The notes under the pieces are model-generated. The model saw nothing but the letters and a program-made list of their open reading frames with translations, was not told where the DNA came from and ran no database searches. Shown here in pieces: positions 3,835 through 41,231 of a stretch of DNA of 64,000 nt (within the stretch, counting starts at the first letter, position 1; each line of letters starts with the position of its first letter). The translations under genes were made by a program, and so were the position numbers. Source of the DNA: Brevinematales bacterium (GTDB lineage: Bacteria > Spirochaetota > Brevinematia > DTOW01); NCBI GenBank assembly GCA_026415355.1, contig JAOAHF010000010.1, forward strand, positions 12,548 through 76,547. The letters are read 5' to 3'.

Positions 3835-5403
3835 ATGCAGGATTTTAGACAAGGGTTTGATGAGATTAGGGTTCCTTTGAAAGTATCCAAGTTTTTTATC
3901 CTTGAAGGTGACATACTTGATGAAGACATACTTTACTATGATAACTTAAAGAAGGGTCTAGTGCTTGATAGTAATACTATAGGAGTAATTCAGAAACTGG
4001 ATCAGATTAAAGATGTCAGAGTATTGAGATATAAAAGTCTTGTCGATGCTTTTGGGGTAGAGAAAAAAGGTAGTTCAAGTATTCATTTTACTGATGATTT
4101 TGATGTTAGAGTAGCTGAAACTGTAAATAGTTTTACAGACTATGATGTTAAAATGGGTTTTAGCGATGAAAAAATTAATAAAAAAATATCAGAAGCTATA
4201 AGAAATACTATTCTGAATATAAGAGGTAAAGATTACGAAGACAAAGTGGATAAAACTACTGCGCTAATATCTGATGCTGTTCAAAAAGATCAAATAGTAT
4301 CTCAAACTATGCTACTTGATGTTCGAAAGACCATAAGGGAGATATCTCAGAGTTTTGTTGATGCTGTATCATTGAAGAATGTTATTCCAATAAAGGCAAA
4401 AAAAGAAGTGGTGTCTTTGAATCTTTCGAATAAAAGTATTTCAAATTATTTTTTAGATTTGGTTGTTACAGATAAGGTTTCTTTTGTAAGTTCCGCAAAG
4501 AGTGTTATTTTGAAGTTTATAAATTCGTTTGGAGATGATAATAGTGGTATAGTGCTTAGCTCTATGCTCCAATATTCAGATAATGATGATTATGTAGTTG
4601 CTCACTCTATATTTGTTATGGCTTTGTCCATAATGATAGCTAAGGAACTCACGAATATAGTTTATGAAAAGATATCGTCAAATCAAAATAGCAAGATTGA
4701 TCCTAGAAGTTTGAAGCTTATTTCTCTGAAAACGTTTGATTTAGATGATTTGATAAATATTGGTCTTGCTGCTTTGCTTCATGATGTAGGTATTAGAAAG
4801 AATTTTGGTGTTATACCTCCATCTTACAAGATTCCATCTACTAATATATCAAAGATAGAGCTTCATCCTAGTGAATCCAGTTTTTTTGTTCAGAAGCTTA
4901 GCTTAGATGTCAGTGTTCAGCGAGCTGTTTACGAGCATCATGAATTTCTTGATGGTAGTGGGTATCCAAAAGGATTAAAGAGGTACATGTCAAAATACTC
5001 ACCTATAATAGCTTTTGCTGAGAAATTTAGCGAATTGGTGCTCGAGAATCCTTTTATAGAGAGACCTATTTCTCCTGCTGTTGCTTTAGGTTACATTCTC
5101 AAAAATGAGATTGGAAAATATGATAAAGATGTAATTTTTGCTTTCGTAAGAGCAACTTCTACTTATCCTATAGGTAGTTGGATTCAAATTTCGAATGGTA
5201 TGATTGGTTTTGTTAAGGATGTGAGTCCGAAAGATAGATCAAAACAAGTTGTAAAACTAGTTTTTAATGAATCTCTAAACAAAATTGAAGAACATAAGTT
5301 AGTAGATCTAGCTGAGTATGATGAGTATAAGATAATTAAGATAATGAATCCAATTGAATTATCTAAGAGAGTTGGAGATTTAAGACAGTATTACTTTGAC
5401 TAG
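3835..5403 (+). CDS. HD-GYP domain phosphohydrolase (c-di-GMP phosphodiesterase family)
   Basis: AALLHDVG, HHEFLDGSGYPKGL, C-terminal YPIGSWIQISNG..G.V extension. Confidence 0.85.
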   Translation: MQDFRQGFDEIRVPLKVSKFFILEGDILDEDILYYDNLKKGLVLDSNTIGVIQKLDQIKDVRVLRYKSLVDAFGVEKKGSSSIHFTDDFDVRVAETVNSFTDYDVKMGFSDEKINKKISEAIRNTILNIRGKDYEDKVDKTTALISDAVQKDQIVSQTMLLDVRKTIREISQSFVDAVSLKNVIPIKAKKEVVSLNLSNKSISNYFLDLVVTDKVSFVSSAKSVILKFINSFGDDNSGIVLSSMLQYSDNDDYVVAHSIFVMALSIMIAKELTNIVYEKISSNQNSKIDPRSLKLISLKTFDLDDLINIGLAALLHDVGIRKNFGVIPPSYKIPSTNISKIELHPSESSFFVQKLSLDVSVQRAVYEHHEFLDGSGYPKGLKRYMSKYSPIIAFAEKFSELVLENPFIERPISPAVALGYILKNEIGKYDKDVIFAFVRATSTYPIGSWIQISNGMIGFVKDVSPKDRSKQVVKLVFNESLNKIEEHKLVDLAEYDEYKIIKIMNPIELSKRVGDLRQYYFD

Positions 5404-26555: not shown

Positions 26556-27726
26556 AGTTTTTCAATACATACCTTTCTAAAGCTTTGACTACAACTTGAT
26601 CGTAGAGATTTGTATTCTTTTGAAGGAATTCTAGTGCTTCTTTGATTGAAAACTTTTTACTTTCTCTCCCATTTATCATTCTTTCGAATTTGTCTGCTAC
26701 AGCAACTATTCTCACGGGTAAAGGTATCATATTACCGCTTAATCTCTCAGGGCCGCTACTGTCTACTTTTTCGTGATGGTATAACACTATAGGTAGATAT
26801 TTTATAAAAATATTGCTATTCTCAATTATTTTTCTACCTACCGATATATGTTTTATAATTTCTGCTTCTTTCTCATAATCAGAACCTTTTGTTAATTTTC
26901 TATGATCTATACCTATAAATCCTATGTCGTGTATCATACTTGCATCTTTTATCAAGTTAACTACTTTTTCTTCTAGGCCTAACTCTCTCGCTATTCCTTC
27001 GGATATTGTCGAGACGTTAAAAGAATGCATTTTCCTAAAGGAGTATCTTCCTTCTATCTTCTTTATGAGTAAGAATAAAAACTCTTTGAATTGTCTAATT
27101 TGGTGTTCTACTATGGTTTCTCTTTTGTTCGTTAAGATCTCAAGGGATCTCAGTGTTTGAATATAATCTTTTGAAGTTATGTAAATTGAATTCATACCGT
27201 ATGGTATGAGTGAAAATAGCAATGATGTTGCTGGATATTCTCTTAGAAACACTAAGAATAGTATTGACACGATGTTAGTTAAAGATAGTATTCTAAAATT
27301 CTTGTCTAGGAACCATCCAGTACCAATGATGGTGTTTATCATCACTAAAACGGTAGAGTAAATTGAATTATTACCAATTCTGGTTATAATCATCATAAAG
27401 AGAAATAAAAGTATGACAATCGTAGTAAGGTAATAGGGTTTGTAATTTTTCTGGGAGTATAGAGTTTTATTTGCCATATCTGTTTCTGTTAGAAATTTGA
27501 GGATGTAAATACTTCCTGCTATTACAAATGCAATATCGTGATTTCTAAACAGGTAGATTAAAAAGCTTCCTCCTCCGTAAGCTATGGAAGCTATGGAAAT
27601 ATTTGTTAGAATACTCTTTATTCTTTTTGTTTTTATTCCAATAAAAGTCAAAATAGATCCTAAAAAGTATATTATAGTTCCAGATAACAGTGCTACAAGT
27701 AGATAGTATGTTATTTTCTCTACCAT
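26545..27726 (-). CDS. Membrane protein with degenerate HD-GYP domain
   Basis: About 6 TMs, then MHSFNVS, IHDIG, HHEKVDSSGP (GYP altered), VADKFERM. Confidence 0.8.
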   Translation of the reverse strand: MVEKITYYLLVALLSGTIIYFLGSILTFIGIKTKRIKSILTNISIASIAYGGGSFLIYLFRNHDIAFVIAGSIYILKFLTETDMANKTLYSQKNYKPYYLTTIVILLFLFMMIITRIGNNSIYSTVLVMINTIIGTGWFLDKNFRILSLTNIVSILFLVFLREYPATSLLFSLIPYGMNSIYITSKDYIQTLRSLEILTNKRETIVEHQIRQFKEFLFLLIKKIEGRYSFRKMHSFNVSTISEGIARELGLEEKVVNLIKDASMIHDIGFIGIDHRKLTKGSDYEKEAEIIKHISVGRKIIENSNIFIKYLPIVLYHHEKVDSSGPERLSGNMIPLPVRIVAVADKFERMINGRESKKFSIKEALEFLQKNTNLYDQVVVKALERYVLKNFNY

Positions 27727-27727
27727 T

Positions 27728-28309
27728 TTAAAACTCTTTGTCTGCTATGCTGGTGAATAAATCAAAATCCTGTTGAGAGAAGAAGACTAATCTTATCTCC
27801 CCTATAGTATTAGGGGTCTTTGAATATTCTTTCAAGATTTCGCATACTACTTTGGCAGCTTCTTCTTTTGGGTATCCATAAACTCCTGTTGATATGGCTG
27901 GGAACGCTATTGTTTTACAACCGAGTTCTTCAGCTAATTTAAGGCTATTTCTGTAAGCATTTTGAAGTAGTTGTTTTTCATTGTTATTCCCTCCTCTCCA
28001 AACAGGTCCTACAGTATGTATTACATACTTTGCTTTTAGGTTTCCTGCTGTTGTGTATACTGCCTCTCCGGTAGGTAATCCATCAGGATATTGAGTTTGT
28101 CTTATTTTCTTACATTCTTCTAGAATTTTGGGTCCTCCTTTACGATGTATTGCACCGTCAACTCCACCTCCGCCCATAAGTGAAGAGTTTGCAGCGTTTA
28201 CTATAACATCGGTGTCTTCTTCAGTTATGTCACCTATCTTAACAACTACAAGTCCATTGAGATATACCTTCATGAGTCTATTATTAAAAAGATTGTCATT
28301 TAAATTCAA
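27728..28309 (-). CDS. Macro-domain O-acetyl-ADP-ribose deacetylase (YmdB-like; likely start ATG 28273)
   Basis: GDIT, NAANSSLMGGGGVDGAIH, VIHTVGPVW, FPAISTGVYGYP. Confidence 0.93.
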   Translation of the reverse strand: MNLNDNLFNNRLMKVYLNGLVVVKIGDITEEDTDVIVNAANSSLMGGGGVDGAIHRKGGPKILEECKKIRQTQYPDGLPTGEAVYTTAGNLKAKYVIHTVGPVWRGGNNNEKQLLQNAYRNSLKLAEELGCKTIAFPAISTGVYGYPKEEAAKVVCEILKEYSKTPNTIGEIRLVFFSQQDFDLFTSIADKEF

Positions 28310-28396
28310 GTGGAGTGAAATGTTGTTGATTGTATTCCAACAGTATTGAAGTTTTTAGAAAGGTTTTGTAAGAATTGGTGTAAGAAAGTATTCTAC

Positions 28397-28410
28397 TTTT
28401 TTTTTTTTTT
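28397..28410 (+). repeat. T14 homopolymer tract
   Basis: 14 consecutive T in the divergent intergenic region, about 75 bp upstream of operator copy 1. Confidence 0.9.
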
Positions 28411-28484
28411 CAAAAGGCTAAGTGGATTTAGGGTTTTTAACCTTTACCAGCTTGAATAAAGTCATTTATTTTTACTTTTTTGTG

Positions 28485-28507
28485 TAAACTAGTTTACAAT
28501 ATAAATT
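28485..28507. promoter_or_regulatory. Palindromic operator, copy 1 (overlaps -10 TACAAT)
   Basis: TAAACTAGTTTACAATATAAATT; 20/23 positions invariant across the three copies. Confidence 0.75.
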
Positions 28508-29285
28508 GAACCTTGGGGAGGTTGGTATGTCCAGATTGGGTTGTTGTGCTGGTTTTATGGTTTTTTGGGTGTTATTTGTTTTTGTATGTGGTGGTTATGG
28601 TTTTGGGTTGAGTGGAGAGGAAATTTTGAGGAAGATAGATGGCAACTTGGATTTCAAAAGTGCTATTATGACTGCGAGGATGGAGATACATTTGCCGGGA
28701 CAACCACCTAGAGTAAAGGTTTTTAAGGTGTGGGTGGTTGGGGAAGAGAAAGCTTATGTTGAGTTCATTAATAAGGAGGATAGGAACATAAGGTATCTTA
28801 AGATTGGTAGGCAGTTGTGGGTTTATGACAAGTCTGAAAATAATACTTTTCTGATATCAGGGCATTTACTAAAGCAGGGAATGATGGGGAGTGATGTATC
28901 TTATGAGGATATACTTGAATCGGAAGATATATACACAAAGTATAGTATTACTCTTGAGGGTGAGGGAAAAGTAAAGGGAAGAGACTGTTATATTGTTTCT
29001 CTAAGGGCTAAGGTTGAGAATGTTTCTTACTATCAGAGAAAGATGTGGGTTGACAAGGAGTTTTTCATACCTTGGAAAGAGGAGATATTTGCCCAGAGTG
29101 GTAGGCTTCTTAAGGTTGCTGAGGTTGAAGAGGTTAGAACGTTTGATAATAAGTATTATCCAACAAAGACTGTAGTTTCTGATAAGCTGAAGGAAAGTAC
29201 AAAAACTGTGATTCAGATACAAGATGCTAGCTTTGATGTTGGTATTTCGGATAGTATTTTCACCAAAAGGTATCTTGAAAGGTAG
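28506..29285 (+). CDS. Outer-membrane lipoprotein-sorting protein, LolA-like (likely start ATG 28527)
   Basis: Signal-like N-terminus; EEILRKID, RYLKIGRQLWVY, LISGHLLKQGMMGSDVSYED, YYQRKMWVDKE, SGRLLK, FTKRYLER. Confidence 0.85.
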   Translation: MNLGEVGMSRLGCCAGFMVFWVLFVFVCGGYGFGLSGEEILRKIDGNLDFKSAIMTARMEIHLPGQPPRVKVFKVWVVGEEKAYVEFINKEDRNIRYLKIGRQLWVYDKSENNTFLISGHLLKQGMMGSDVSYEDILESEDIYTKYSITLEGEGKVKGRDCYIVSLRAKVENVSYYQRKMWVDKEFFIPWKEEIFAQSGRLLKVAEVEEVRTFDNKYYPTKTVVSDKLKESTKTVIQIQDASFDVGISDSIFTKRYLER

Positions 29286-29288
29286 CTG

Positions 29289-30419
29289 TTGTTTCTAGAG
29301 GTGAGGGGCATGAGAGGGTTTTCTCTAGTTCTTGTTTTGTTTTTGTGTCTGGGGATGGTTTTTGCCCAGGAAGATGCCGGGATTAGTTTGTCTGGGCGTT
29401 TCAGGACAGATGTTGGAATATCTACTGTGGTATCAAATAATCGACTAGAAAGTTACTACTATCTCGGTAAGAATACGCTGAGAATAGAATTTGTTAACAA
29501 TGACACTACTTATGGTAAAGTAGATGGAAGTATTGACTTCAACATAGTGTTAGGGAGATATTATAATGTGCTCCTTTCTCAAACTAATGCGATTTTGTTG
29601 GGGGATAGTGCTCTTCTTTTGGTGGATCTGAGGAAGCTTTATCTTATGGTTAGATTTGGTTGGGGTGATATTATAGTTGGACGGCAGTTACTTAGGTTTG
29701 GTCAAGGGGTTGTTTTTTCACCTATTAATTTTTTCGACAGACTTGATATATCGGATATTAACTTTTCAAGAGTTGGTTCGGATTGTTTAAGGATCAGAGT
29801 GTTTTTGAGTGATATGGGGGATATTAGTCTAGTAGTTGTGCCAAGAGCTATAGTAACAAACTCTGATGCTTTACTGAGGACTTCATTCATGTTGGCAGGG
29901 TTCGACATGGAGGGAGTGCTTGGATACTTTGGCTTAAATAACGAAATAAGAAGTGGGTTATCGTTTAAGGGTGATATTGGGTTAGGAATATATGGTGAGT
30001 TTTTGTATAACTATCATGAAGAACCTAAAAATAGATACTTTGAGTTTGCTTTAGGGCTGGATTATTCGTTCTTTGAAAGGTTGGTTACCCGGTGTGAATA
30101 TTATTTCAACTCTCTTGATACAGAAGGAGTCTTACCTATTTTGCTGACTAGGCATAAAACCTATCCTTTTGTTTCAAGACAGTATTTGATGTTACAATTG
30201 TCCTATCTACATGATATTGTGACTAGTGCTAGCTTATCTTTGATCGAAAATATCGAGAAAGAGGGATTTATAGCCTACCTTGGTGTCACGAAGAATCTGT
30301 TCCAGAATGTAGACTTCTACCTTGACGTTAGGTTCTTCTACAAAGACATCGGTGGTTTTTTTGGTATTATTGGTTATAATCTTATATACTCGTCTTTAGG
30401 GTTAGAGATGAAGTTTTAG
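29289..30419 (+). CDS. Putative outer-membrane beta-barrel protein
   Basis: Signal peptide; alternating aromatic/hydrophobic strands; LRKLYL..IVGRQLLRFGQG.VFSPINFF; C-terminal Phe. Confidence 0.6.
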   Translation: MFLEVRGMRGFSLVLVLFLCLGMVFAQEDAGISLSGRFRTDVGISTVVSNNRLESYYYLGKNTLRIEFVNNDTTYGKVDGSIDFNIVLGRYYNVLLSQTNAILLGDSALLLVDLRKLYLMVRFGWGDIIVGRQLLRFGQGVVFSPINFFDRLDISDINFSRVGSDCLRIRVFLSDMGDISLVVVPRAIVTNSDALLRTSFMLAGFDMEGVLGYFGLNNEIRSGLSFKGDIGLGIYGEFLYNYHEEPKNRYFEFALGLDYSFFERLVTRCEYYFNSLDTEGVLPILLTRHKTYPFVSRQYLMLQLSYLHDIVTSASLSLIENIEKEGFIAYLGVTKNLFQNVDFYLDVRFFYKDIGGFFGIIGYNLIYSSLGLEMKF

Positions 30420-30472
30420 AGGAGGAATATGAAAAGGAGTAGTATATATTCTGAGATTATGGGGGAGGTTGT

Positions 30473-31579
30473 ATGAAATTTTTGAGGGAGATTTTTGAGA
30501 AGAACAGGAAGTTTTTGGTTGTGCTGGTTTTGGTACCGGCGGTGGTTATAGGTATAATTGGCCTGATATTTGGGGATGGAGTGAGGGATGTACCGTTGGC
30601 TGTGGTGGATAAAGATACTGGTATGGAACTACCTTTCATGGGTGAGGTTTCAGTGTCTCAACAATTCTTGGATAAGATAGATAGGAATATTATCAGGATA
30701 GTTAAAGTTGATACTGAGGAAGAGGCTATGGAAATGGTTAGGAAAGGGGAGGTTTTGGGAGTTATAGTTTTCCCCGAAAACTTCACAAAGGAAATGCTTG
30801 TAAAGGTGGATGACCCTTCTTATCAGATTTCCGAGAAGATAAGGATAAAGCTAGACAAGAGTAGTATGATAGTCTCTGGGGTTGTAGTGTCAACGCTGAT
30901 GAATACTTTTATGGGGATCGCAAAACAGAGTGAGAGTTCTCCCCTACCTGTTGAAATAACAACTGCTGTGGGAATAGAAAATATTGTCTTTGGGGATTAC
31001 ATTGTCTCAGGTATTATAACCGTTTTGACATTCATAATGTCGGTTGTAGGTGTTGCTATGGTGATTATCACAAACAGGCAAAAGATAACCTTCGGTAAGT
31101 ATAGTTCCTTGGAGATAGTAGTTTCGTATCTTGCTGTTTTTACGCTAGCTGTTTTCATAAGTATGGTTCTTATGTATTCGGTTTCAGTTCCTCTTTTCAA
31201 GATAAACGTAAATGATGGAATATGGACTGTATTGCCTGGAACCCTGATTTTTCTCTTGGCTTCAGTGTCTATAGGGATATTGATAGGTATTGCTTCGAAG
31301 GACTATGAAGGTATAAGGGCAGGAGTAGTGATTTCGGTTTTGCCTATACTATTCGGTAATGTTATCATACCCATGGAAGCGATGCCTTCGTGGCTAAGAC
31401 CAGTGGTATATATTTTCCCACCTTACTACGGAACCAGAGTATATCGCCTAGGTGTTCTCAAACAATTGGGCGTTTCTGATATGGTAGTTGAGATTGTGGT
31501 TCTATCAGTGTTCTTTATTGTATTCTTTATAACTAGTTTTGTTCTTTTAGGTAAGAAAATAAGAGATAGGAAAATATAG
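30473..31579 (+). CDS. ABC-2 type permease with large extracytoplasmic domain
   Basis: TM1, then VPLAVVDKD..GVIVFPENF, then about 5 TMs; FGNVIIPMEAMPSWLRPVVYIFPPYY. Confidence 0.82.
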   Translation: MKFLREIFEKNRKFLVVLVLVPAVVIGIIGLIFGDGVRDVPLAVVDKDTGMELPFMGEVSVSQQFLDKIDRNIIRIVKVDTEEEAMEMVRKGEVLGVIVFPENFTKEMLVKVDDPSYQISEKIRIKLDKSSMIVSGVVVSTLMNTFMGIAKQSESSPLPVEITTAVGIENIVFGDYIVSGIITVLTFIMSVVGVAMVIITNRQKITFGKYSSLEIVVSYLAVFTLAVFISMVLMYSVSVPLFKINVNDGIWTVLPGTLIFLLASVSIGILIGIASKDYEGIRAGVVISVLPILFGNVIIPMEAMPSWLRPVVYIFPPYYGTRVYRLGVLKQLGVSDMVVEIVVLSVFFIVFFITSFVLLGKKIRDRKI

Positions 31580-31590
31580 GGAGGTGTAAT

Positions 31591-32256
31591 ATGAGGAGGT
31601 TTTTGGCTAGTTTGTTTCTCTTGTTTACTGCTGTGTCACTCGTGTTTTCGGAAGAGTTTGAGGGGATAGCGGTTGGCAGATTTCTCTCGAAAGATATGGA
31701 CAATACTGTGAAGATATTCATAAAGGGCAGTAAGATGAAAATGGTACCTGAGAAACAGATCTCTGGCACGAATGGGTATCCAATAGTTGATTTCAGTGCC
31801 AGAAGGAGTATTTTTGTGTTCGTTGACGAGAAATACTACATGGAAATGCCGTTGGATGTAATGATAAAGAACGTAGAAGAAAAACCAATATTACTCAGTG
31901 AAGGTGGTGACGAAAAGTATCTTGGTTTCGATGCTAAGAGGTTTGTATATAGTGATAAGGACTTTAGAGTAGAAGCAATAGGTACCAGAGATTTAAAAAT
32001 AGCTCTTAATCCTTTCATCGGAGTTCAGAGGATCGGAAATGAAGGCTTTCTAGTGTCTGCTTCTGCCCATTACCTTTACAAAAGTTCTATCGCTCCTTTG
32101 AAAATAGTGGTGTATAACCAGAGGGGAGAAAGATTGGTGAATGTAGAGATAATGGCTATACAAAAGCAGAAACTGAGTGATAGGGAATTTGAGGTACCGG
32201 AAGGATTTAGAAGGTTCAGTGAGGTTGTCAAGGAAAAGATGAAAAAAGGAAGGTAG
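31591..32256 (+). CDS. Exported DUF4412-like protein
   Basis: Signal peptide; KIFIKGSKMKM, DEKYYMEMPL, EKYLGFDAKRF, KLSDREFEVPEGF. Confidence 0.6.
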   Translation: MRRFLASLFLLFTAVSLVFSEEFEGIAVGRFLSKDMDNTVKIFIKGSKMKMVPEKQISGTNGYPIVDFSARRSIFVFVDEKYYMEMPLDVMIKNVEEKPILLSEGGDEKYLGFDAKRFVYSDKDFRVEAIGTRDLKIALNPFIGVQRIGNEGFLVSASAHYLYKSSIAPLKIVVYNQRGERLVNVEIMAIQKQKLSDREFEVPEGFRRFSEVVKEKMKKGR

Positions 32257-32259
32257 CTT

Positions 32260-32952
32260 ATGCATAGGGTTTTGGCTTACCTTGTAGTAGTAGTGCTGCC
32301 ACTTAATGTAGGATTTGGACTAGATGGTTACATCTCGTTGTCACTGATGGATAGATATTATGATAGGTTCATAAATGATAGCTCTATGTCAAGGGTTAAG
32401 ACGGAGGTCGTAGTGGGCGAAAAGGTAAATAGCTTTGGGTTGGAAGCGAGGATAATAAATTACTATGGTGTTGGTGTTAATTTTGGAAGACTACTCTACA
32501 GCGAAAGGATTGGTATTGAAGTTGGAGGATATTTTGATGTTGATAACTTTTCATTGGAGTTGAGAAACACTCTATGGGACGGAGTGGAAATGTACGATGA
32601 GGTAAGGGTGCTATTTTATTACTTTAGCTCTACAGACTTGATAACTGTTTCTCCTAGGATGTGTGTATCATACGACTTCAGAGGGATCTCTGTGGATTTT
32701 TCAATAGCTGCATCTGTCTCTGTTCCAACAACCCCTATAATAACTTTCAATATTCCTGTGTCCTTGGGTGGAATATTTGGTAATTACAGAGAGGTTTTAT
32801 TTTCATGTGTCTCGGGGATCACGCTGTCACCTAGAATTTCATTGTATTGGAAGGAAGTGGATCTGTCTATTGAGGGTGGGTATTTTTTTGGACTAAGCCA
32901 ACTCTTTAGCTCCTATCCGTATGTGTCTCTGAAGGTAGGAGTAGAGTTGTAG
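32260..32952 (+). CDS. Hypothetical exported protein, possibly a small beta-barrel
   Basis: Signal-like N-terminus; amphipathic beta-strand pattern; ends YVSLKVGVEL. Confidence 0.55.
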   Translation: MHRVLAYLVVVVLPLNVGFGLDGYISLSLMDRYYDRFINDSSMSRVKTEVVVGEKVNSFGLEARIINYYGVGVNFGRLLYSERIGIEVGGYFDVDNFSLELRNTLWDGVEMYDEVRVLFYYFSSTDLITVSPRMCVSYDFRGISVDFSIAASVSVPTTPIITFNIPVSLGGIFGNYREVLFSCVSGITLSPRISLYWKEVDLSIEGGYFFGLSQLFSSYPYVSLKVGVEL

Positions 32953-33146
32953 AGCCTCACACGTTCTATACCTTATCTTGTGACAGGAATTTAACCTTTC
33001 GGGCATATACCTTCATGTTTTATGAGATATTCTTTTGTAGTGAACTTTTGGATTTGTTTGGATAGATCTGAGTACAAAATATTCAGATGATGTTTTACAG
33101 AGGACGCTTAGCTCTTAAACGAACTCAGGATGTTGTATTTCTGTTA

Positions 33147-33171
33147 TAAACCAGTTTATAATATAAACTGG
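33147..33171. promoter_or_regulatory. Palindromic operator, copy 2 (overlaps -10 TATAAT)
   Basis: TAAACCAGTTTATAATATAAACT; perfect 10-1-10 inverted repeat CCAGTTTATA-A-TATAAACTGG at 33151-33171; TTGTAT 18 nt upstream of TATAAT. Confidence 0.82.
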
Positions 33172-33185
33172 AGGGAATTGATGTT

Positions 33186-33842
33186 ATGGAGGACAAGGAT
33201 ATAAGAGACATAATGGAGGAGTTACGGATTATAAAGGATATGGTTTATAGAGATAAGGAAGTTGTTGATAGGTTTGTGTTATCTAAGGCTGTGAGGTATT
33301 TGTCGTTGGTTTTTGGTGTGTTGATTTTGTTGGTGTTTTGGGGTATTTACTTAATTAAAGTTAGTGGTTTAGAGTTGGATGATAATGTTGTAACGTATTC
33401 AGTAGTTTTAGGTTTAGTTTTTATTTCTTTGATTGCAGGGATTGTAAAGATTTTTAGTTGGAAGGTTGCGGATCCTAATTTTTCTCCTACGTCGTTTTTT
33501 TATAGGATCTTAGGGGTAGGGGTTTTGAAATTTTTTGTGATTATTTTTATTTTGATTGTTTTTTTCTCGTTATACTTCAGTTTAAATGGATTATCTCAGT
33601 ATCTTTTACCTGTTATTGGAGTTGGAATTGGACTTCTTTATTTGGTTTATGGTGTTGTTTTTTATAATCTAGAGCTAGAGTTGATATCTTATTATATCAT
33701 TCTTACTAGTGCTGTGAGTACCTTTTTTATTGTATACAGAAATATTGAGGTTTTCTTATGGGTTGGGATTGTTTTTGGTTGGGGTTTTATTTTATTTTTT
33801 CTTCTTACTACAGTTAGGGCAAAGAGGAAGGGGGTTAGATGA
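33186..33842 (+). CDS. Hypothetical integral membrane protein (about 6 TMs)
   Basis: Short charged helix MEDKDIRDIMEELRIIKDM, then hydrophobic segments; overlaps the regulator gene (ATGA). Confidence 0.8.
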   Translation: MEDKDIRDIMEELRIIKDMVYRDKEVVDRFVLSKAVRYLSLVFGVLILLVFWGIYLIKVSGLELDDNVVTYSVVLGLVFISLIAGIVKIFSWKVADPNFSPTSFFYRILGVGVLKFFVIIFILIVFFSLYFSLNGLSQYLLPVIGVGIGLLYLVYGVVFYNLELELISYYIILTSAVSTFFIVYRNIEVFLWVGIVFGWGFILFFLLTTVRAKRKGVR

Positions 33843-34150
33843 ATTTTGATTTAGACAAGAACATACACGAGAAGGCAAGACTTGTTATTATGATTGCTTT
33901 AGCGGTCAGTCCTGAAAAAAAGTTGTCGTTTAATGAGCTTAAGGATATTACTAAACTTTCTTCTGGTAATTTATCTGTACAGATAAGGAACTTAGAGGAA
34001 GTAGGGTATATTAATGTTAAGAAATTTTTTGATAACTCTAAGCCAAAAACTGAAATAGTTATTACTGATAGAGGCAAGAGAGCGTTAGAGAATTACTTGG
34101 ATAATGTGGAGAGGATAGTAAAAGTCTATAAAGAGGTTAAGAGTTTATGA
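33839..34150 (+). CDS. Winged-helix transcriptional regulator (MarR/ArsR-like, HTH_34 type)
   Basis: IHEKARLVIM..LSFNELKDITKLSSGNLSVQIRNLEEVGYI..KPKTEIVITDRG. Confidence 0.88.
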   Translation: MNFDLDKNIHEKARLVIMIALAVSPEKKLSFNELKDITKLSSGNLSVQIRNLEEVGYINVKKFFDNSKPKTEIVITDRGKRALENYLDNVERIVKVYKEVKSL

Positions 34151-34190
34151 TTTTTATGTTTGAATTTTTGTGAGATAGAGGAGGTGTATT

Positions 34191-34889
34191 ATGAGTTTAA
34201 TAGTGCTTAAAGATGTAGTAAAGGAATATCATAAAGGTGATGGTAAAGATAGTGTTAAAATCTTAGCTCTTAGGAACATAAATCTTGAAATAGAAAGAGG
34301 AGAATTTATTGCTATTATGGGGCCTTCGGGTAGTGGTAAGACTACTCTTCTTAATATTGTAGGATGTTTAGATACTCCTACTAGTGGTGAAGTTATTTTC
34401 AATGGTACTGTGCTTACAAAAGCAGATGAAAACTTTCTTTCAGAATATAGAAAGAAGAACATCGGTTTTGTATTTCAATCTTACAACCTTATTCCTGTAT
34501 TAACAGTTAAGGAAAATATTGAGTTACCTTTGACTATTGACAATAGTTTGTCCCCGTCTGAAAAGGAGGAAAGAGTTATGAAACTCATAGATATGGTAGG
34601 ATTAAGGGGTATGGGAAATAGGTATCCTAGAGAGATTTCTGGTGGGCAGGAACAGAGAGTTGCAATAGCAAGAGCTTTGATTAAGAAACCCTTAGTTGTG
34701 CTTGCTGATGAGCCAACAGCTAACTTAGATTCTGTTACTGCTGAGGAGATAATTGAAATTATGAAGAGGATGAATGAAATCGAAGGTACGACTTTTATAT
34801 TTTCAACGCATGATCCAAAAATTGAAAGGCACGCAAAGAGAGTTATATTACTGAAAGATGGACAGATTGTTTCTGATGAAAGGAGGTGA
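34191..34889 (+). CDS. ABC transporter ATP-binding protein (LolD/MacB-type)
   Basis: GPSGSGKTT, GFVFQSYNL, ISGGQEQRVAIARAL, LADEPTANLD, STHD. Confidence 0.95.
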   Translation: MSLIVLKDVVKEYHKGDGKDSVKILALRNINLEIERGEFIAIMGPSGSGKTTLLNIVGCLDTPTSGEVIFNGTVLTKADENFLSEYRKKNIGFVFQSYNLIPVLTVKENIELPLTIDNSLSPSEKEERVMKLIDMVGLRGMGNRYPREISGGQEQRVAIARALIKKPLVVLADEPTANLDSVTAEEIIEIMKRMNEIEGTTFIFSTHDPKIERHAKRVILLKDGQIVSDERR

Positions 34890-36148
34890 AGATGATTTTA
34901 AAAATGGCTTTTAGGAATATTTTAAGACATAAAAGAAGAACTTTGATTAGTGTTGTTACTGTTGCTGTTGGAATCATGTTTTATATAGTAATGGATTCTC
35001 TTTTTAATGGTATAGATAGATTGTTAGTTGAAAGTATAGTAAAGTTTTCTGATAGTTCAATAGTCGTGTATTCTAAGGAATATGATGAGAATCGTAGGGG
35101 ATATCCTATTGATAAAGGTATAAAGGATTATGATAGTATAGAAGACGTTATTTTATCTGTTGAAGGAGTTGAGGGAGTAGTGTATAGGACACAATTTCTT
35201 GGAGAGATAATTTTTGGTAGTAAGTCTAAGTATGTAGTGGGTACTGTGGTAAATCCTTTTATTGATACACAGGTTTTTGAAATAAATAAACACATAATAG
35301 GCAATTATCTTTCCAATGTTGAGGGAGAAGTTTTGATGGGTAGCATACTTGCCAAAAAACTAGGAATTAAAATTGGAGACTACTTAACTATAAGTGCTAA
35401 GACAGTTGGAGGGGGTTATAATGCTTTGGATTTTAAGGTTGTTGGATTAGTTAATTCTCCTAGTACTACTTTAAATGAATCTGGAATTATTATTTCATAT
35501 AGTTCTGCTAATAAGCTACTGAATCTTAGGAACAGTAAAACATCGTTACATGTGAAAGTTAATTGGAACAAAGGGGAAAGTGTTGCTTCTTATTTGAATA
35601 AGCTTGATATGGTTTCGAAAGAAATAAAAAGTAAAATAGGTGAATACAGAGTTTATACAATTAAGGATATTTATGGAGATTTTTTACTTCTTATGGAGCA
35701 GAAGAGGATAACGTCTTACTTAATAACGTTTTTGGTTCTTGTAATTGCTGGAGTTGGTATTGCTAATGGTGTTTTAATGTCGGTTTATGAAAGAGTTAAA
35801 GAAATAGGTATGTTGATGGCTATGGGTATGAAACCTAAGATGGTAAGAAGACTCTTTCTGTTAGAGGGTACTATGATTGGGATTTTGGGTGGTTTTTTGG
35901 GGCTTGTATTAGGTTTTGTAGCTGATGTCTTTATGATATATATAGGTTGGGATGTATCTTCAATGTATAGAGATTTAGATCCTTCTAATCTAGGTATGCC
36001 GGTTTGGGGAGTATTATATGGTGAATGGAATATATGGGCTTTTGTTATTGGTTTTCTATTTTCTTTTCTTGTGGCTATTATTTCTTCTTATATTCCTTCA
36101 AGGTATGCTTCCAAACTAAAGGTTATAGATTGTTTGAAGTTTGTATGA
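34886..36148 (+). CDS. FtsX/LolE-like ABC permease (A)
   Basis: MAFRNILRHKRRT, SVYERVKEIGMLMAMG, PSRYASKLKVIDCLKF. Confidence 0.9.
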   Translation: MKMILKMAFRNILRHKRRTLISVVTVAVGIMFYIVMDSLFNGIDRLLVESIVKFSDSSIVVYSKEYDENRRGYPIDKGIKDYDSIEDVILSVEGVEGVVYRTQFLGEIIFGSKSKYVVGTVVNPFIDTQVFEINKHIIGNYLSNVEGEVLMGSILAKKLGIKIGDYLTISAKTVGGGYNALDFKVVGLVNSPSTTLNESGIIISYSSANKLLNLRNSKTSLHVKVNWNKGESVASYLNKLDMVSKEIKSKIGEYRVYTIKDIYGDFLLLMEQKRITSYLITFLVLVIAGVGIANGVLMSVYERVKEIGMLMAMGMKPKMVRRLFLLEGTMIGILGGFLGLVLGFVADVFMIYIGWDVSSMYRDLDPSNLGMPVWGVLYGEWNIWAFVIGFLFSFLVAIISSYIPSRYASKLKVIDCLKFV

Positions 36149-36153
36149 TTGCC

Positions 36154-37437
36154 CTATTGAAATTTGAGACATTCTACAACTTTTAGTTTAGATATGTGTC
36201 TTGATGGTAGGTATGATGATATGAGAGATATTAGTAATACAAATACAAAGCATATTACCAAACTCCAGGTATTCCAGACACCATATATGACCCCCCATGT
36301 AGGTATCCCCCATTCTGTTCCGCTTCCTCCAAATATTGAAAGATCAAGTCCGTAATTAACTAGTAGCAAGTTAAACAATACTCCAAAAATCAGACCTATT
36401 ACACCGCCAATAGTACCTATTATTATACCTTCTGTCACAAAAATAGATCTTATCTTACGAGGATTTATTCCTATTGTCATCAATATACCTATTTCTTTGT
36501 TTCTTTCGTATATTGACATAATTATAGTGTTTGAAATTCCAACGCCAGCTATTATGAGTATTATAGCCATTAAAAAATAGTGATCTACTCCCCCTTGTTT
36601 CATTAACTCAAGAAAGTATCCATGAAGATCTTTGAATGTATACACTGTGTATCCTTTAAGTTTTGTTCTCAGTTTACTTGCTATTTTTTCTACTTTTTGA
36701 GTGTACGATGATATCCATTCTCCTTTATGCCATTCGACTTTTACATGTAATGAGGTTTTAATGTCTCCCAGATTAAGTAGTTCATTAGCGGATTCGTATG
36801 ATATCAAAACACTAGATTCATCTACTAGTGCGTTTCCCGTTTCGACTATTCCTACAATCTTGAATTCCATAGCATTGTATATACCCTCAACTGTCTTAGT
36901 GGAAATTGTTACGTAATCACCTATTCCGACACCTAGTGACTTTGCAAGAAACCCTCCTATGAGTATTTCTCTTTTGTTTTTTAAATATTCGCCTTTGATC
37001 TTTTCAATTATCTTGAAGACTTTTTTATCTTTTTCAGGTTCTATGGCAATACCAACGATGTATTTAGATTTATTACCAAATATAACTTCGCACAAGAATT
37101 GAGTTCTGTAAGTTATTTCTTTTAACCTAAGTTCATTTCTGATAATATTTTCTACTTCACTAAAACTTTTTACTCCTTTGCTTATTGGAAAACCTTTCCG
37201 GTTTTTGTCATATTCTTCAGGGTATATTGTTATTGAACTGTCAGAAAAGTTTACAACTCCTTCAACAAACATTCTATCAATACCATTATACAAAGAGTCC
37301 ATAGTTATGTATACAACTACTCCTACTACTATTGTTACTATTATAAGTAAATTCCTCTTAATGTGTTTTAATGCATTCCTAAAAGCAATCTTAATAACCA
37401 TAATAGAAAGTATTAATCTTTCATTTTTGTTTCTCAA
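36154..37437 (-). CDS. FtsX/LolE-like ABC permease (A'), inverted paralog of A (likely start ATG 37401)
   Basis: IAFRNALKH, MDSLYNGIDR..FSDSSI, LHVKVEWHKGE, SIYERNKEIG, PSRHISKLKVVECLKF; colinear with A over its full length. Confidence 0.88.
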   Translation of the reverse strand: MRNKNERLILSIMVIKIAFRNALKHIKRNLLIIVTIVVGVVVYITMDSLYNGIDRMFVEGVVNFSDSSITIYPEEYDKNRKGFPISKGVKSFSEVENIIRNELRLKEITYRTQFLCEVIFGNKSKYIVGIAIEPEKDKKVFKIIEKIKGEYLKNKREILIGGFLAKSLGVGIGDYVTISTKTVEGIYNAMEFKIVGIVETGNALVDESSVLISYESANELLNLGDIKTSLHVKVEWHKGEWISSYTQKVEKIASKLRTKLKGYTVYTFKDLHGYFLELMKQGGVDHYFLMAIILIIAGVGISNTIIMSIYERNKEIGILMTIGINPRKIRSIFVTEGIIIGTIGGVIGLIFGVLFNLLLVNYGLDLSIFGGSGTEWGIPTWGVIYGVWNTWSLVICFVFVLLISLISSYLPSRHISKLKVVECLKFQ

Positions 37438-37500
37438 CTTTTAAATCAAAATAGCTTGGTAGTATATACTTGTAACTCATTTTAGTTTTTGTTTTAGAAG

Positions 37501-37525
37501 TAAACTAGTTTATAATATAAACTAG
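37501..37525. promoter_or_regulatory. Palindromic operator, copy 3 (overlaps -10 TATAAT)
   Basis: TAAACTAGTTTATAATATAAACT; perfect 10-1-10 inverted repeat CTAGTTTATA-A-TATAAACTAG at 37505-37525, between divergent permeases A' and B. Confidence 0.82.
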
Positions 37526-37552
37526 GATAGCTATTGTACTTGGGGGTTAGGT

Positions 37553-38815
37553 ATGATTTTGAAGATGGCTTTTAGGAATATTAGGAGAAACAGTCGTAGA
37601 TCTATTTTAGCGTGTTTATCTGTTGGTATTGCTATTATGGCTGTTGTAGTTTTACAGGGGCTTATTGATGGTATGATGGATAATATTATAAAAAATTCTA
37701 CTAAAAATGATACTGGTCATATTAGGATTGCTGCTAAGGAATATTTTGAAAATTTAGATTATATGCCAGTTTATTATACTATTAATAACCCTGATAAGGT
37801 AATGGATTTAGTGTCTAGTATTGTTGGTGAAGATTTGGTTATTGCTACTGGTAGGTTTAGATTTCCTGTTCTAATAGAGTTTAATGGTAATAACAAAGTT
37901 GGGATATGTTTTGCTGGAGATATTCAGAAAGAAAAAGACCTTATTATGTTGCATAAGAGTATTGTTGATGGTAGGTATTTGAGTGGTAAGGTTGTTGAGG
38001 AGAATGGTATTAAGTATAGAGAAATAATAATTGGTAAAAAGATGGCTGAGGTTTTAGGGATAAAAGTTGGTGATAGTTTTTCTTTAATGCTTCAGGGAAG
38101 TGATTTAGGTATAAGGATTCCTAGATTTAGGGTTGTTGGTATATTTAGTACTGGTCTTAATGCTTTAGATAGCAACATTTTTATGATTTCTCTTGAGGAT
38201 GCTAAAGATGTTTTGGGTGCTTACGATATGGTTCAGGAGATAATTGTAATACTTAAAAACTACAATCGTGCTAAGGAAGTTGCAGATAGGATGAATAATT
38301 TCTTCTCAAAGAATGAAGAGTTTAGTTATCTCAGAGCAGTTGATTGGAAGAGTTCCGGTAGTATGGCTGGAATGTTAGATCAGGTTCTAGGTATATACAA
38401 CATTATATACTTTATTATTACGCTTTTAGGAGCCTTTATTATAATGAGTATAATGATGATGGTAATCCTTGAGAGGAGGCGAGAGATAGGTATTCTTAAA
38501 GCTATGGGTTTCAAGAAAATTGAAATACTTGCTCTATTTACTCTTGAGGGTACTATTTTAGGTACTATTGGTACTTTAGGTGGAGTTATTGTGGGTGTAC
38601 TCATAAATGTACCTTTATCAATATGGGGTATTGATTTTAGTTCATCTCTTTCGAATATGAATTTTCCTATGGATAATGTTATCAAATGGATGATAACAGG
38701 AAGTAGTATTCTTGGAGCTATAGTGCTTGGAGTTTTTGTGTCTGCAGTGATTTCTTTGATACCTTCAAGGCATGCGTCTAATATGAAACCTATTGATGCC
38801 ATAAAGAGTGTTTAG
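37553..38815 (+). CDS. FtsX/LolE-like ABC permease (B)
   Basis: MAFRNIRRNSRRS, TGHIRI, LERRREIGILKAMG, PSRHASNMKPIDAIKSV. Confidence 0.9.
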   Translation: MILKMAFRNIRRNSRRSILACLSVGIAIMAVVVLQGLIDGMMDNIIKNSTKNDTGHIRIAAKEYFENLDYMPVYYTINNPDKVMDLVSSIVGEDLVIATGRFRFPVLIEFNGNNKVGICFAGDIQKEKDLIMLHKSIVDGRYLSGKVVEENGIKYREIIIGKKMAEVLGIKVGDSFSLMLQGSDLGIRIPRFRVVGIFSTGLNALDSNIFMISLEDAKDVLGAYDMVQEIIVILKNYNRAKEVADRMNNFFSKNEEFSYLRAVDWKSSGSMAGMLDQVLGIYNIIYFIITLLGAFIIMSIMMMVILERRREIGILKAMGFKKIEILALFTLEGTILGTIGTLGGVIVGVLINVPLSIWGIDFSSSLSNMNFPMDNVIKWMITGSSILGAIVLGVFVSAVISLIPSRHASNMKPIDAIKSV

Positions 38816-38896
38816 TTATCCTGGATTTTCTATTTGACATTTCACCTAAGATCTGGAAAAGATAACAAAAATAGTACTTTCAATCATTTTGTCTAG

Positions 38897-39028
38897 GATT
38901 TTGAGGATATCTGGGATTTATTCCAGCAACAGGAAGGGGAAGAAAATGAGCTGGTGGAAAGGTATCAGTTTGTAAGGGGGTTGTTGGAAGAGTTGGATGT
39001 TGAGAAGGAGGTTATGGTATGGGGATAA
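38897..39028 (+). pseudogene. Start-less coding fragment (43 aa)
   Basis: DFEDIWDLFQQQEGEENELVERYQFVRGLLEELDVEKEVMVWG*, preceded by in-frame TAG; G-rich relative to its flanks. Confidence 0.3.
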
Positions 39029-39090
39029 AGTATTTAGAATACTCTTCTCAAGGAATATTAAACGCTGACCAAAATTCAGTAAAACATTTA

Positions 39091-39119
39091 TTGAAAATGT
39101 TAGGAACTGTTTTTATAAT
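39091..39119 (+). promoter_or_regulatory. Sigma70-type promoter for the EF-G-like gene
   Basis: TTGAAA-17 nt-TATAAT, followed by SD GGAGGAG and ATG 39144. Confidence 0.65.
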
Positions 39120-39128
39120 GGTTTAGGT

Positions 39129-41231
39129 TTGGAGGAGGAGTGTATGAAGGTATATGATACCAAGGATATTATAAACATAGCAGTCATAGGTGAACATAGG
39201 AGTGGTAAAACTACATTTCTTGATAGTGTTTTTTATGTTACAGGTAAAACTAGTGAGAAAGGTAGTGTGGACAAAGGTACGTCGGTTATGGATTTTGATC
39301 CTGAGGAGATAAAGAGAAAGATGACTATAAGGAGTATATATTCATATGTTGAATATAAAGGTAAGAAAGTAAACTTTATTGATACACCGGGGTTTGTGGA
39401 TTTCATAGGTGAGATGGAGATGGCTCTTGAAGTAGTTGAGAATGTAGTACTTGTAGTTGATGCTGAAAGAGGAATAACTATTGAAACTGACAGAATATGG
39501 CATTCTGTGGATGAGTTACATGTGGCAAAATCTGTAGTAATAAACAAGGTTGATACTATGACTGGTAACTTCGATGATATAGTAAATAAGATAAAAGCAA
39601 AGATAGGTAAAATTGCTGTTCCTGTTGAGATACCGTACTTTGAAGGTGGTAATTTTGTAGGTACTATAGATGTTATTCATAAGCATTTACTTGTATATAC
39701 CGATGATGGTAGAAACTTTAAAAAGCAAGATATACCTAAGGAATATGAAGAGATTGTCAGTAAGTATCGTGATGAAATATTTGAAGATATTTCAGACATA
39801 GATGAAGCATTTATGGAAAAATATTTGTCTGGTGAAGAATTGTCTGAGGATGAGATAATAAGTGGACTTAGAGATTGTATTTCAAAAGGGAAAATTATAC
39901 CGATATTTGCTTGTTCTGCTCTTAATAATATTGGTGTTTTAAACATACTTGATATAGTTGTTGAAGAATTTCCTTCCCCTGATATACATAAAGAACTTGT
40001 TGTGATTAAAAACGGTAAAGAGATGAATCAAGATATCTCTACAGAAAATACTACAATTCTTACACCTTTTAAAATTAGGATTGATCCCTATACTGGAAAG
40101 ATAGTTTATTTCAAGGTATGGACTGGTAGCGTTAAAGGAGGCAGTGAATTTTATATTTCTGAAACATCTTCTAGTGTAAAATTTCAACATATCTACCTAT
40201 GTTTTGGTAAGTCTCTTGAGGAAATTAGTGAGGTTAGAGCTGGTGACATATTTGCAGTTCCAAAAATTGAAGGAGTGAAAATTGGTTATACTTTGGTTTC
40301 TGACAAGATTGATGTGAAGTTAAAACATCTTGCTCTGCCTAACCCTATATTCTTCACTTCTGTAATAGGTAAAAATAGAGGTGATGAGGATAAATTGGCT
40401 GAGCTTTTGGGTAGGTTTTCTGAAGAGGATCCATCATTTATTGTCAAGTTTAATGATTTTTCGAAGGAGCTAGAGGTGCATTGTCAGGGGGAAAATCAGT
40501 TTAATATATATGTTGAAATACTCAAGGAACGATATAAAATAGATTTTAGTTTAGATACTCCTAAAATACCCTATAGAGAGACTATTACAAAAACTGTTGA
40601 AGCTCATTATAAGCATAAAAAACAGACAGGTGGACATGGTCAATATGGTGAAGTATTCATAAGAGTTGAGCCTTTGGAAAGAGGTAAAGGATTTGAGTTT
40701 GTTGATCAGATAAGAGGTGGACACATTCCAAAACAGTTTATACCTTCAGTTGAAAAGGGTGTCTTAAGTGCTATGGAAGAAGGAGTTTTAGGTAAATATC
40801 CTGTTGTTGATGTGAGAGTTATACTTTACGAAGGCTCCTATCACGAAGTTGATTCTTCTGATATTTCTTTTCAGATAGCGGGTTGGCATGCTATGAAGAT
40901 TGCTCTTGAAAATGGTAATCCTGCTATACTTGAACCTATAATGGATGCTAAAATAATTGTCGAAGAAAGTTATATGGGAGCTATAACAGAAGATCTTAAC
41001 TCTAGAAGGGGTAGGATAAGTAGCATTGATAGAAAAGAAGATGGTACTGTTATAATAAGCGCGTTTGTGCCTATGTCTGAAATGATAAGATATGCTTCTG
41101 CCTTGAGTTCTATAACAAAAGGAGTGGGTAGATTTACTATGACTCTAGCATATTATGATTTCTTGCCAGAGAAAATGAAAAATGAGGTTGCAGAGTTAGG
41201 TAAAAAGATAAAAGAGAAAATAAATTCTTAA
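39129..41231 (+). CDS. fusA: Elongation factor G paralog (EF-G2 / EF-G-like; likely start ATG 39144)
   Basis: G1 GEHRSGKTT (non-canonical), DTPGFVDF, NKVD, IPYRETI, HKKQTGGHGQYG, GSYHEVDSS. Confidence 0.88.
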   Translation: MEEECMKVYDTKDIINIAVIGEHRSGKTTFLDSVFYVTGKTSEKGSVDKGTSVMDFDPEEIKRKMTIRSIYSYVEYKGKKVNFIDTPGFVDFIGEMEMALEVVENVVLVVDAERGITIETDRIWHSVDELHVAKSVVINKVDTMTGNFDDIVNKIKAKIGKIAVPVEIPYFEGGNFVGTIDVIHKHLLVYTDDGRNFKKQDIPKEYEEIVSKYRDEIFEDISDIDEAFMEKYLSGEELSEDEIISGLRDCISKGKIIPIFACSALNNIGVLNILDIVVEEFPSPDIHKELVVIKNGKEMNQDISTENTTILTPFKIRIDPYTGKIVYFKVWTGSVKGGSEFYISETSSSVKFQHIYLCFGKSLEEISEVRAGDIFAVPKIEGVKIGYTLVSDKIDVKLKHLALPNPIFFTSVIGKNRGDEDKLAELLGRFSEEDPSFIVKFNDFSKELEVHCQGENQFNIYVEILKERYKIDFSLDTPKIPYRETITKTVEAHYKHKKQTGGHGQYGEVFIRVEPLERGKGFEFVDQIRGGHIPKQFIPSVEKGVLSAMEEGVLGKYPVVDVRVILYEGSYHEVDSSDISFQIAGWHAMKIALENGNPAILEPIMDAKIIVEESYMGAITEDLNSRRGRISSIDRKEDGTVIISAFVPMSEMIRYASALSSITKGVGRFTMTLAYYDFLPEKMKNEVAELGKKIKEKINS

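Follow-up and report, generated by a model that had tools for sequence, protein, structure and literature searches.

A palindromic promoter site as the predicted operator of an HTH_34 winged-helix regulator encoded with a membrane protein in a Brevinematales envelope-transport cluster

Introduction

In Bacillus subtilis, SdpI, a polytopic protein encoded together with the ArsR-type autorepressor SdpR, sequesters this repressor at the membrane (PMC2910880). A system of comparable outline is predicted here for a stretch of 64,000 nucleotides (nt) from a Brevinematales bacterium (assembly GCA_026415355.1, contig JAOAHF010000010.1, positions 12,548 to 76,547 of the forward strand), hereafter called the window. 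Three copies of a palindromic 23-mer precede the transcription units of an envelope-transport cluster in the window, and one of these units encodes a small membrane protein (MEM) followed by a winged-helix regulator of 103 residues (33839-34150). Sequence comparison makes it quite probable that the 23-mer is the operator of this regulator, which is the best explanation of the observations as a whole.

The likeness to SdpR/SdpI lies in the architecture, as a small, predicted winged-helix autorepressor and a multi-pass membrane protein of about 200 residues share a tightly coupled operon with its own operator, an arrangement that would offer a plausible path in one step from a signal at the membrane to derepression. 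Unlike SdpI, MEM has no detectable SdpI-family similarity, and its gene comes first in the operon. The regulator scores as HTH_34 and not as a typical ArsR protein, and the predicted regulon comprises exporters of the ATP-binding cassette (ABC) type and outer-membrane proteins instead of a toxin-immunity gene. As MEM falls outside the SdpI family, it may at most be said to work like SdpI, not to be an SdpI.

Repressors of the MarR, HxlR, PadR, and ArsR families also resemble the system, with the same modeled fold, dimer-type inverted-repeat operators over promoters, autoregulation, and frequent control of export genes. In contrast to these families, the membrane partner is near-obligatory here. 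The BlaI/BlaR1 and MecI/MecR1 systems share the arrangement of a sensor gene, putative in the present case, followed by a repressor gene in one operon, and a winged-helix repressor acting on palindromes in promoter regions, which are sometimes divergent. However, MEM of the window contains no histidine and thus no HExxH zinc-protease motif, it has no extracellular sensor domain, and the regulator has no match to the BlaI family in Pfam. A BlaR1-type protease route is excluded by the missing histidine. The closest solved structure, and also the closest sequence, is PH1061 from Pyrococcus horikoshii, which has the same length and the same layout. PH1061 is a structural-genomics protein, and the literature yielded neither a function nor an operator or partner for it.

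Thus, the kind of system is already known, namely a small winged-helix autorepressor with a palindromic operator that is possibly coupled to a membrane protein. There appears to be no description of the operator of this family or of its near-identity in three phyla, nor of the target genes and the membrane partner, which is nearly constant and novel in structure. The initial annotation had considered the operator of this regulator type to be undescribed, and in agreement with this no paper on the HTH_34 (PF13601) regulator family or its operator was found; literature searches for TP0789, PF17131, DUF4412, and the motif strings likewise returned nothing relevant.

The regulator family therewith gains a precise predicted DNA target, a near-constant membrane partner of no known fold, and a set of target genes. 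These targets are MacB/Lol-type ABC exporters in spirochaetes, genes for TonB-dependent-receptor-like proteins and tetratricopeptide repeat (TPR) lipoproteins in Bacteroidota, and a TP_0789-like/outer-membrane cluster in Brevinematia. It is unusual for an operator to vary so little among three phyla that differ in promoter architecture, and this constancy makes the prediction of regulons by pattern search feasible in thousands of genomes, including many of Bacteroidales from the gut and rumen. If MEM indeed controls the repressor, the two proteins would represent a new family of minimal membrane-to-DNA switches for cell-envelope transport.

Copies of the site in the window

The 23-mer TAAACYAGTTTAYAATATAAAYT has exactly three exact matches in the window, all of them on the + strand (28485-28507, 33147-33169, and 37501-37523). 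The chance expectation is 0.01, and none of 100 dinucleotide-preserving shuffles reached a count of three. The placement of the copies directly ahead of + strand transcription units, as given in the initial annotation, is thereby reproduced, and the symmetry that it described can be read from the sequence in the same way: the inverted repeat (10-1-10) is perfect in copy 2, CCAGTTTATA-A-TATAAACTGG, as well as in copy 3, CTAGTTTATA-A-TATAAACTAG, and an additional TAAACY on the upstream side combines with the middle half-site into a second palindrome that overlaps the first (TAAACTAGTTTA). The palindrome of copy 1 is imperfect. A hexamer TAYAAT, the embedded candidate -10 element, occupies positions 11-16 of all three copies.

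Copy 1 (TAAACTAGTTTACAATATAAATT, 28485..28507, + strand) contains TACAAT at 28495-28500, with the -35-like hexamer TTTACT (28471-28476) 18 nt upstream, and ends 19 nt before the start codon at 28527. Copy 2 (TAAACCAGTTTATAATATAAACT, 33147..33169, + strand) contains TATAAT at 33157-33162, 18 nt downstream of TTGTAT (33133-33138), and is directly followed on its 3' side by GGAGGG; the start codon at 33186 lies 16 nt behind the motif. Copy 3 (TAAACTAGTTTATAATATAAACT, 37501..37523, + strand), whose palindrome extends to 37525, contains TATAAT at 37511-37516 and is separated from the start codon at 37553 by 29 nt. Its -35 element is weak and could be either TTTTGT (37487-37492) or TTGTTT (37489-37494).

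No convincing fourth copy is present in the whole 64 kb, either for the 17-mer core with up to three mismatches or for the family-wide pattern TAAANNNGTTTAYNNNATAAAY with up to two mismatches. Matches at 17292, 21313, 22047, 35266, and 58326 were rejected as sites, as they have two to three mismatches at invariant positions. An invertible promoter or a mobile-element repeat was also rejected, since there is a single short palindrome per promoter and no flanking partner repeat.

Co-occurrence of the site and the regulator

The association between site and regulator was followed in both directions. In the first direction, loci were selected by DNA only. Reference genomes, one per species, were scanned with the pattern TAAACNAGTTTANAATATAAA, which has 19 fixed bases and for which chance matches were estimated at a handful. 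At least 120 loci matched, nearly all of them from Bacteroidota and about one per genome; the loci listed include one from Chlorobiota and three from other Spirochaetota (Rectinemataceae, Treponemataceae, and one unclassified spirochaete). Dysgonomonas sp. ZJ279, Prevotella aff. ruminicola Tc2-24, and Hymenobacter lucidus are represented in the list. According to tblastn, a homolog of the window's regulator with 33-48% identity is encoded within about 1 kb of the site in 86 of the 120 listed loci. Clustering of open reading frames (ORFs) placed a membrane protein of about 195 residues directly beside the site in 89 of these loci, and the regulator directly after the membrane-protein gene in 79. 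In most of the remaining listed loci, the site lies near the edge of the 8-kb block examined. Roughly ten are chance matches in AT-rich genomes (Bacilli, Clostridia, Mollicutes, Arsenophonus, and Hydrogenothermaceae).

In the Bacteroidota and Chlorobiota, the genes most often added to the predicted regulon encode a TonB-dependent-receptor-like protein (CarbopepD_reg_2 and Plug domains) and a TPR-like lipoprotein of 210-260 residues. They either separate the membrane-protein gene from the site or are preceded by a second site downstream of the regulator (L036, L051, L065, L066, L087, L096, L106, L005, L018, and L020). Some loci of these two phyla encode a tandem pair of membrane-protein paralogs.

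In the opposite direction, 80 metagenome loci were chosen by a peptide pattern for the recognition helix of the regulator and confirmed by tblastn. A match to the 22-mer with up to three mismatches is present in 42 of them, and in 35 of the 47 loci with a length of at least 6 kb; the reversed sequences of the same 80 loci gave no match. The linkage of the site to the winged-helix gene, which the initial annotation had regarded as the simplest assignment, therefore holds whether loci are selected by DNA or by protein.

The matches fall at three preferred positions. The first is about 620-750 nt upstream of the regulator, just before the membrane-protein gene, the second lies about 3.7-4.85 kb upstream (about -3700 to -4850), and the third about 290 nt downstream of the regulator, before the next operon. 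In the genome loci selected by DNA, such far-upstream sites head operons in which a TonB-dependent-receptor-like gene and a TPR-like lipoprotein gene precede those for the membrane protein and the regulator. The fraction of 42/80 is a lower bound because several of the loci without a match show a half-site variant, TAAAG/CTTTA, or a second membrane-protein paralog upstream, in which case the promoter falls outside the region examined. This variant is also found 5' of membrane-protein genes in L176 and L157.

The bases that are invariant throughout the family are TAAA-N3-GTTTAT-N3-ATAAAC, and at position 5 of the family-wide matrix G is more common than C. In L131, a variant operator at about 5265-5300, TTCAAAGTACTTTA-CAACA-TAAAGTACTTTGAA, forms a 14-5-14 palindrome with four half-sites. 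This hints at an ancestral site with four half-sites, of which the form found in the window may be a version with three.

Conservation of the proposed regulon in Brevinematia

Four contigs from the Brevinematia lineage, with labels within L121-L127, encode regulators that are 70-80% identical to that of the window. Gene order differs among these relatives. Nevertheless, the site always precedes the MEM operon, the operon of the TP_0789-like protein or the gene of a 376-residue protein, and the gene of an FtsX-type permease termed B. Orthologous to copy 2, it stands ahead of the operon for MEM, regulator, ABC ATPase, and permease in L121, L122, L123, L126, and L127. Three copies are found in L122, where permease B and the TP_0789-like operon are divergent neighbors, each with its own copy in the common spacer (4588, - strand, corresponding to copy 3, and 4686-4708, corresponding to copy 1). 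In L123, the permease B gene is joined to the front of the TP_0789-like operon with one copy (14644) ahead of both. In L126, permease B is encoded at the end of the MEM operon, and a separate copy precedes the ortholog of the 376-residue protein (55% identical). More distant relatives (L128, L129, L064, and L098) encode the ATPase and both permeases, A and B, in a single operon that follows the site.

The site thus accompanies the same three gene sets through rearrangements, which is the behavior expected of a regulon, and the regulon proposed in the initial annotation is borne out in these relatives. The same applies to the suggested autoregulation of the regulator, as the site precedes the regulator-encoding operon in all lineages, which makes autoregulation probable from gene arrangement. 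Taken together, it is well supported by comparison of sequences that the site is the operator of the regulator and that the regulator would control its own operon as well as the other two units of the window.

The winged-helix regulator

The regulator (33839..34150, + strand) matches the Pfam family HTH_34 (PF13601) with 75.9 bits against a cut-off of 27 over residues 14-94, and all listed homologs carry PF13601. Its best homolog points to a member of the Brevinematia (Spirochaetota) as the source of the window. It is not a MarR-family match, as it scores 21.7 bits with MarR_2 (cut-off 27). With its 103 residues it has none of the dimerization helices of MarR proteins (about 140-150 residues), and it covers less than half of MarR targets in foldseek comparisons (TMt 0.36-0.58). 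Similarity to ArsR/SmtB proteins is marginal for HTH_5 (24.1 vs. 22 bits) and far below the cut-off of the NCBIfam model HTH_metalloreg (18 vs. 55). The protein contains no cysteine and a single histidine, so that metal or redox sensing as in ArsR, HxlR, and QsrR is unlikely.

AlphaFold models the regulator with confidence (pLDDT 95.7) as a minimal winged helix with the layout H-E-H-H-E-E-H and a long C-terminal helix. Its nearest structure is PH1061 (PDB 1UB9; TM-score 0.80, E = 1.2e-6), followed in foldseek by MftR, Sco3205, HxlR, PadR, and QsrR, several of which have been solved on operator DNA. No ligand pocket is evident in the modeled structure. The recognition helix G43-N44-L45-S46-x-Q48 (GNLSVQ in the window) shows little or no variation between Brevinematia and Bacteroidota, in keeping with the constancy of the DNA site. 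The family is large, with 2,879 clusters at 50% identity (E ≤ 1e-10) and no fewer than 7,997 at 90%, and it is annotated with generic names only, such as 'MarR family'. A defense or toxin-antitoxin module was considered and rejected, as PADLOC returned nothing for MEM and only generic winged-helix matches for the regulator.

The membrane partner

MEM (33186..33842, + strand) is a membrane protein of 218 residues, and the stop codon of its gene overlaps the start codon of the regulator gene (ATGA). The confident model (pLDDT 87.6) consists of six transmembrane helices preceded by an N-terminal helix in the cytoplasm. MEM belongs to no family in Pfam or NCBIfam, its model resembles no PDB structure (best E = 0.58), and none of 35 recovered relatives carries a Pfam domain or a functional name. 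Among 57 membrane-protein sequences there is no SdpI match at E ≤ 1, a scan at 0.01 gave none either, and Peptidase_M56 matched one of 22 such sequences, only at E = 0.1.

That a membrane protein is encoded together with the regulator had been noted for the window, and this partner proves to be near-constant: a MEM homolog is encoded upstream of the regulator in 59 of the 70 testable loci of the protein-selected set, in 54 of them as its immediate neighbor. In the majority of loci, the start codon of the regulator overlaps the stop codon of the membrane-protein gene or lies within 4 nt of it. In L128 (2489-2660), the six-helix protein is replaced by an ORF of 35 residues with a single helix (2552-2657). 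Its stop codon overlaps the GTG start codon of a regulator with 54% identity, and a tandem operator lies behind a consensus TTGACA. The small ORF looks like a natural minimal version of the membrane partner.

Position of the site relative to promoters

The site is placed over putative promoters in two different ways. Of 11 sites from the Brevinematia lineage, three of them in the window, ten have TAYAAT preceded by a -35-like hexamer at a spacing of 18 nt. This is compatible with the earlier reading of TAYAAT as a -10 element, the -35 of copy 3 being weak. The exception is the site of the FtsX-type permease B in L122, where the best -35-like hexamer is found at a spacing of 16 nt. The hexamers are TTGACT at two sites of L123, TTGAAT and TTGATT in L126, TTGTAT at the MEM operons of the window, L121, and L122, and TTTACT at two sites of TP_0789-like operons. 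In the predicted TTGnnT-N18-TAYAAT promoter of Brevinematia, the site spans about -22 to +1. Over the region as a whole, promoter-like matches are not enriched (49 vs. 40.8 expected).

The gene is found on the opposite side of the site in Bacteroidota. Here the site is flanked by conserved CAAA and CAAAnnTA, which read TTTG and TAnnTTTG on the complementary strand. The primary sigma factor of Bacteroidota uses the boxes TTTG at -33 and TAnnTTTG at -7 (PMC7366714). The site occupies the whole 20-nt spacer between these two boxes. The same 22 bases would thus exclude polymerase in two unrelated promoter architectures, which favors a repressor operator over a promoter element. At the same time, the operator is almost unchanged across the three phyla Bacteroidota, Chlorobiota, and Spirochaetota.

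Proposed mechanism and alternatives

The position of the site, over the -10 element and start point in Brevinematia and in the gap between the -33 and -7 boxes in Bacteroidota, points to repression. On the basis of this position, the regulator is likely to act as a repressor, also of its own operon, by blocking RNA polymerase. A dimer would bind the inverted repeat GTTTAT-N3-ATAAAC with its two 5-base cores 10 bp apart; the 10-bp spacing of GTTTA and TAAAC would fit one dimer, and the flanking third half-site TAAAC could take up a second dimer or a wing contact. The bound protein would keep RNA polymerase off the promoters of its own operon (MEM, regulator, ABC ATPase, and permease A), of the operon encoding the TP_0789-like protein, outer-membrane proteins, and an ABC-2 permease, and of permease B.

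The input is more weakly inferred. On sensing an envelope or lipophilic signal, MEM might bind the repressor at the membrane or set it free, and this would switch on a MacB/LolCDE-like exporter together with its outer-membrane accessories. This role of MEM as the signal-sensing partner is proposed by analogy with SdpR/SdpI. A wider proposal, put forward tentatively, is that MEM and the HTH_34 regulator form a widespread one-step transmembrane signaling module that would need neither kinase nor protease nor a known sensor domain. Its operator would have remained near-identical since before the split of Bacteroidota, Chlorobiota, and Spirochaetota, or would have spread among these phyla, and the module would link an envelope signal to the expression of exporters and of outer-membrane uptake or export proteins.

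Several points weigh against the proposed assignment of the site to the regulator. The lone TAAAC half-site is gene-distal in Brevinematia and gene-proximal in Bacteroidota and Treponemataceae, and elsewhere the lone half-site is most often TAAAG, not TAAAC. The protein-selected sample covers only those family members that have this recognition helix. The matches listed from the reference-genome scan include no Brevinematia genome, and the site count for the source organism covers the 64-kb window. Finally, the membrane proteins of spirochaetes and Bacteroidota are only moderately linked (hhalign 72%, E = 3e-5, with the N-terminal helix included); their common descent is likely because position, partner, and operator are shared.

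Among the alternatives, activation survives best, although it is improbable. The winged-helix protein would then bind the same site as an activator or a dual regulator, as some MarR- and PadR-like proteins do activate transcription, and the poor -35-like elements of the window (TTGTAT, TTTACT, and TTTTGT) are of a kind common in activated promoters. However, an activator would normally sit upstream of or beside the -35 element, whereas in the window the site overlies the -10 element and the predicted start point, and in Bacteroidota it takes up the whole -33/-7 spacer. In addition, the near-consensus TTGACT-N18-TAYAAT promoters of L123 should need no activation.

Still less probable, and indeed very unlikely, is a site that serves as a promoter element or as the target of another factor, for instance an alternative sigma factor or a regulator whose gene lies in another place, with the winged-helix gene as a co-regulated passenger. 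The -10-like hexamer within the site would suit this explanation. Yet the same 22 bases occur in phyla whose primary sigma factors read different boxes (-35/-10 vs. -33/-7), and the site is palindromic and changes its orientation relative to the gene between lineages. Site and regulator co-occur in both directions of selection, the recognition helix is frozen alongside the site, and ORF clustering of the listed genome loci revealed no sigma factor or other DNA-binding gene conserved nearby.

An RNA or DNA hairpin (a leader, a processing site, or a repeated extragenic palindrome) can practically be dismissed. A hairpin of 9 bp, rich in A/U, is possible for copies 2 and 3 (z = -2.1 and -1.8), and CC..GG of copy 2 and CT..AG of copy 3 resemble a compensatory change. 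However, symmetric protein binding explains the paired arm changes equally well, the folding energies are weak and differ from copy to copy, and copy 1 adopts another fold that is not better than those of shuffled sequences (z = 0.08). In addition, TAYAAT as a -10 leaves the site mostly untranscribed, the Bacteroidota site lies between promoter boxes, and no Rfam match was found in 27500-39500 at E ≤ 1. None of these alternatives explains the two-way co-occurrence of the site with the regulator.

Genes of the cluster

The genes behind the three copies of the predicted repressor operator suggest a function in envelope transport. Unit 1 (28527..32952, + strand) follows copy 1 and comprises five genes. 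The first encodes a TP_0789-like/LolA-like protein (28527-29285, + strand) and is followed by the gene of the 376-residue protein mentioned above (29289-30419, + strand), which has a signal peptide and a C-terminal phenylalanine and is probably an outer-membrane barrel. The remaining genes encode an ABC-2 permease (30473-31579, + strand), a DUF4412 protein (31591-32256, + strand), and a probable outer-membrane protein of 230 residues, again with a signal peptide and a C-terminal phenylalanine (32260-32952, + strand). The synteny of unit 1 is retained in the relatives L122 and L123. No ATPase gene adjoins that of the ABC-2 permease, and the sole ATPase of the cluster is of the MacB/LolD type (34191-34889). 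ATPases of this type normally pair with FtsX-type permeases.

Unit 2 (33186-36148, + strand) follows copy 2 and encodes MEM, the regulator, the ABC ATPase of the LolD/MacB type (34191-34889, + strand), and an FtsX/MacB_PCD permease of type A (34886-36148, + strand); the ATPase and permease genes are predicted to be co-transcribed with those for MEM and the regulator. Unit 3 follows copy 3 with an FtsX/MacB_PCD permease of type B (37553..38815, + strand), which is distant from type A and likely to be the second permease subunit of the transporter. The ABC system has the FtsX and MacB_PCD architecture in Pfam. Its scores with the LolCDE equivalog models are far under the cut-offs (99 and 114 bits vs. 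362 for lolCE and 219 vs. 308 for LolD), and the transporter is therefore classified as MacB/Lol-type with no substrate assigned.

Pairwise identities divide the permeases into three groups, of which types A and B are always under a site. The third, type A', is encoded on the - strand between units 2 and 3 (36154..37437) and is 50% identical to type A. Its gene converges with unit 2 and diverges from copy 3, with 64 nt between this copy and the start codon of the gene. The place of type A' in the regulon is uncertain because a scan of the contigs found no operator belonging to its orthologs in L121 and L122, and in the window it may be controlled only by an accident of position.

Further downstream, a near-consensus TTGAAA-17-TATAAT is found at 39091-39119, just 5' of the gene for EF-G (39129-41231). 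In view of this promoter-like match, unit 3 probably ends earlier and EF-G lies outside the regulon. The window has a G+C content of about 32% and a strong GC skew. Over units 1 and 2 (28000-34000), the G+C content rises to 0.36-0.38, compared with 0.30-0.33 in the flanks, with a strong positive GC skew; the raised G+C content of this region could result from its gene content or from a foreign origin.

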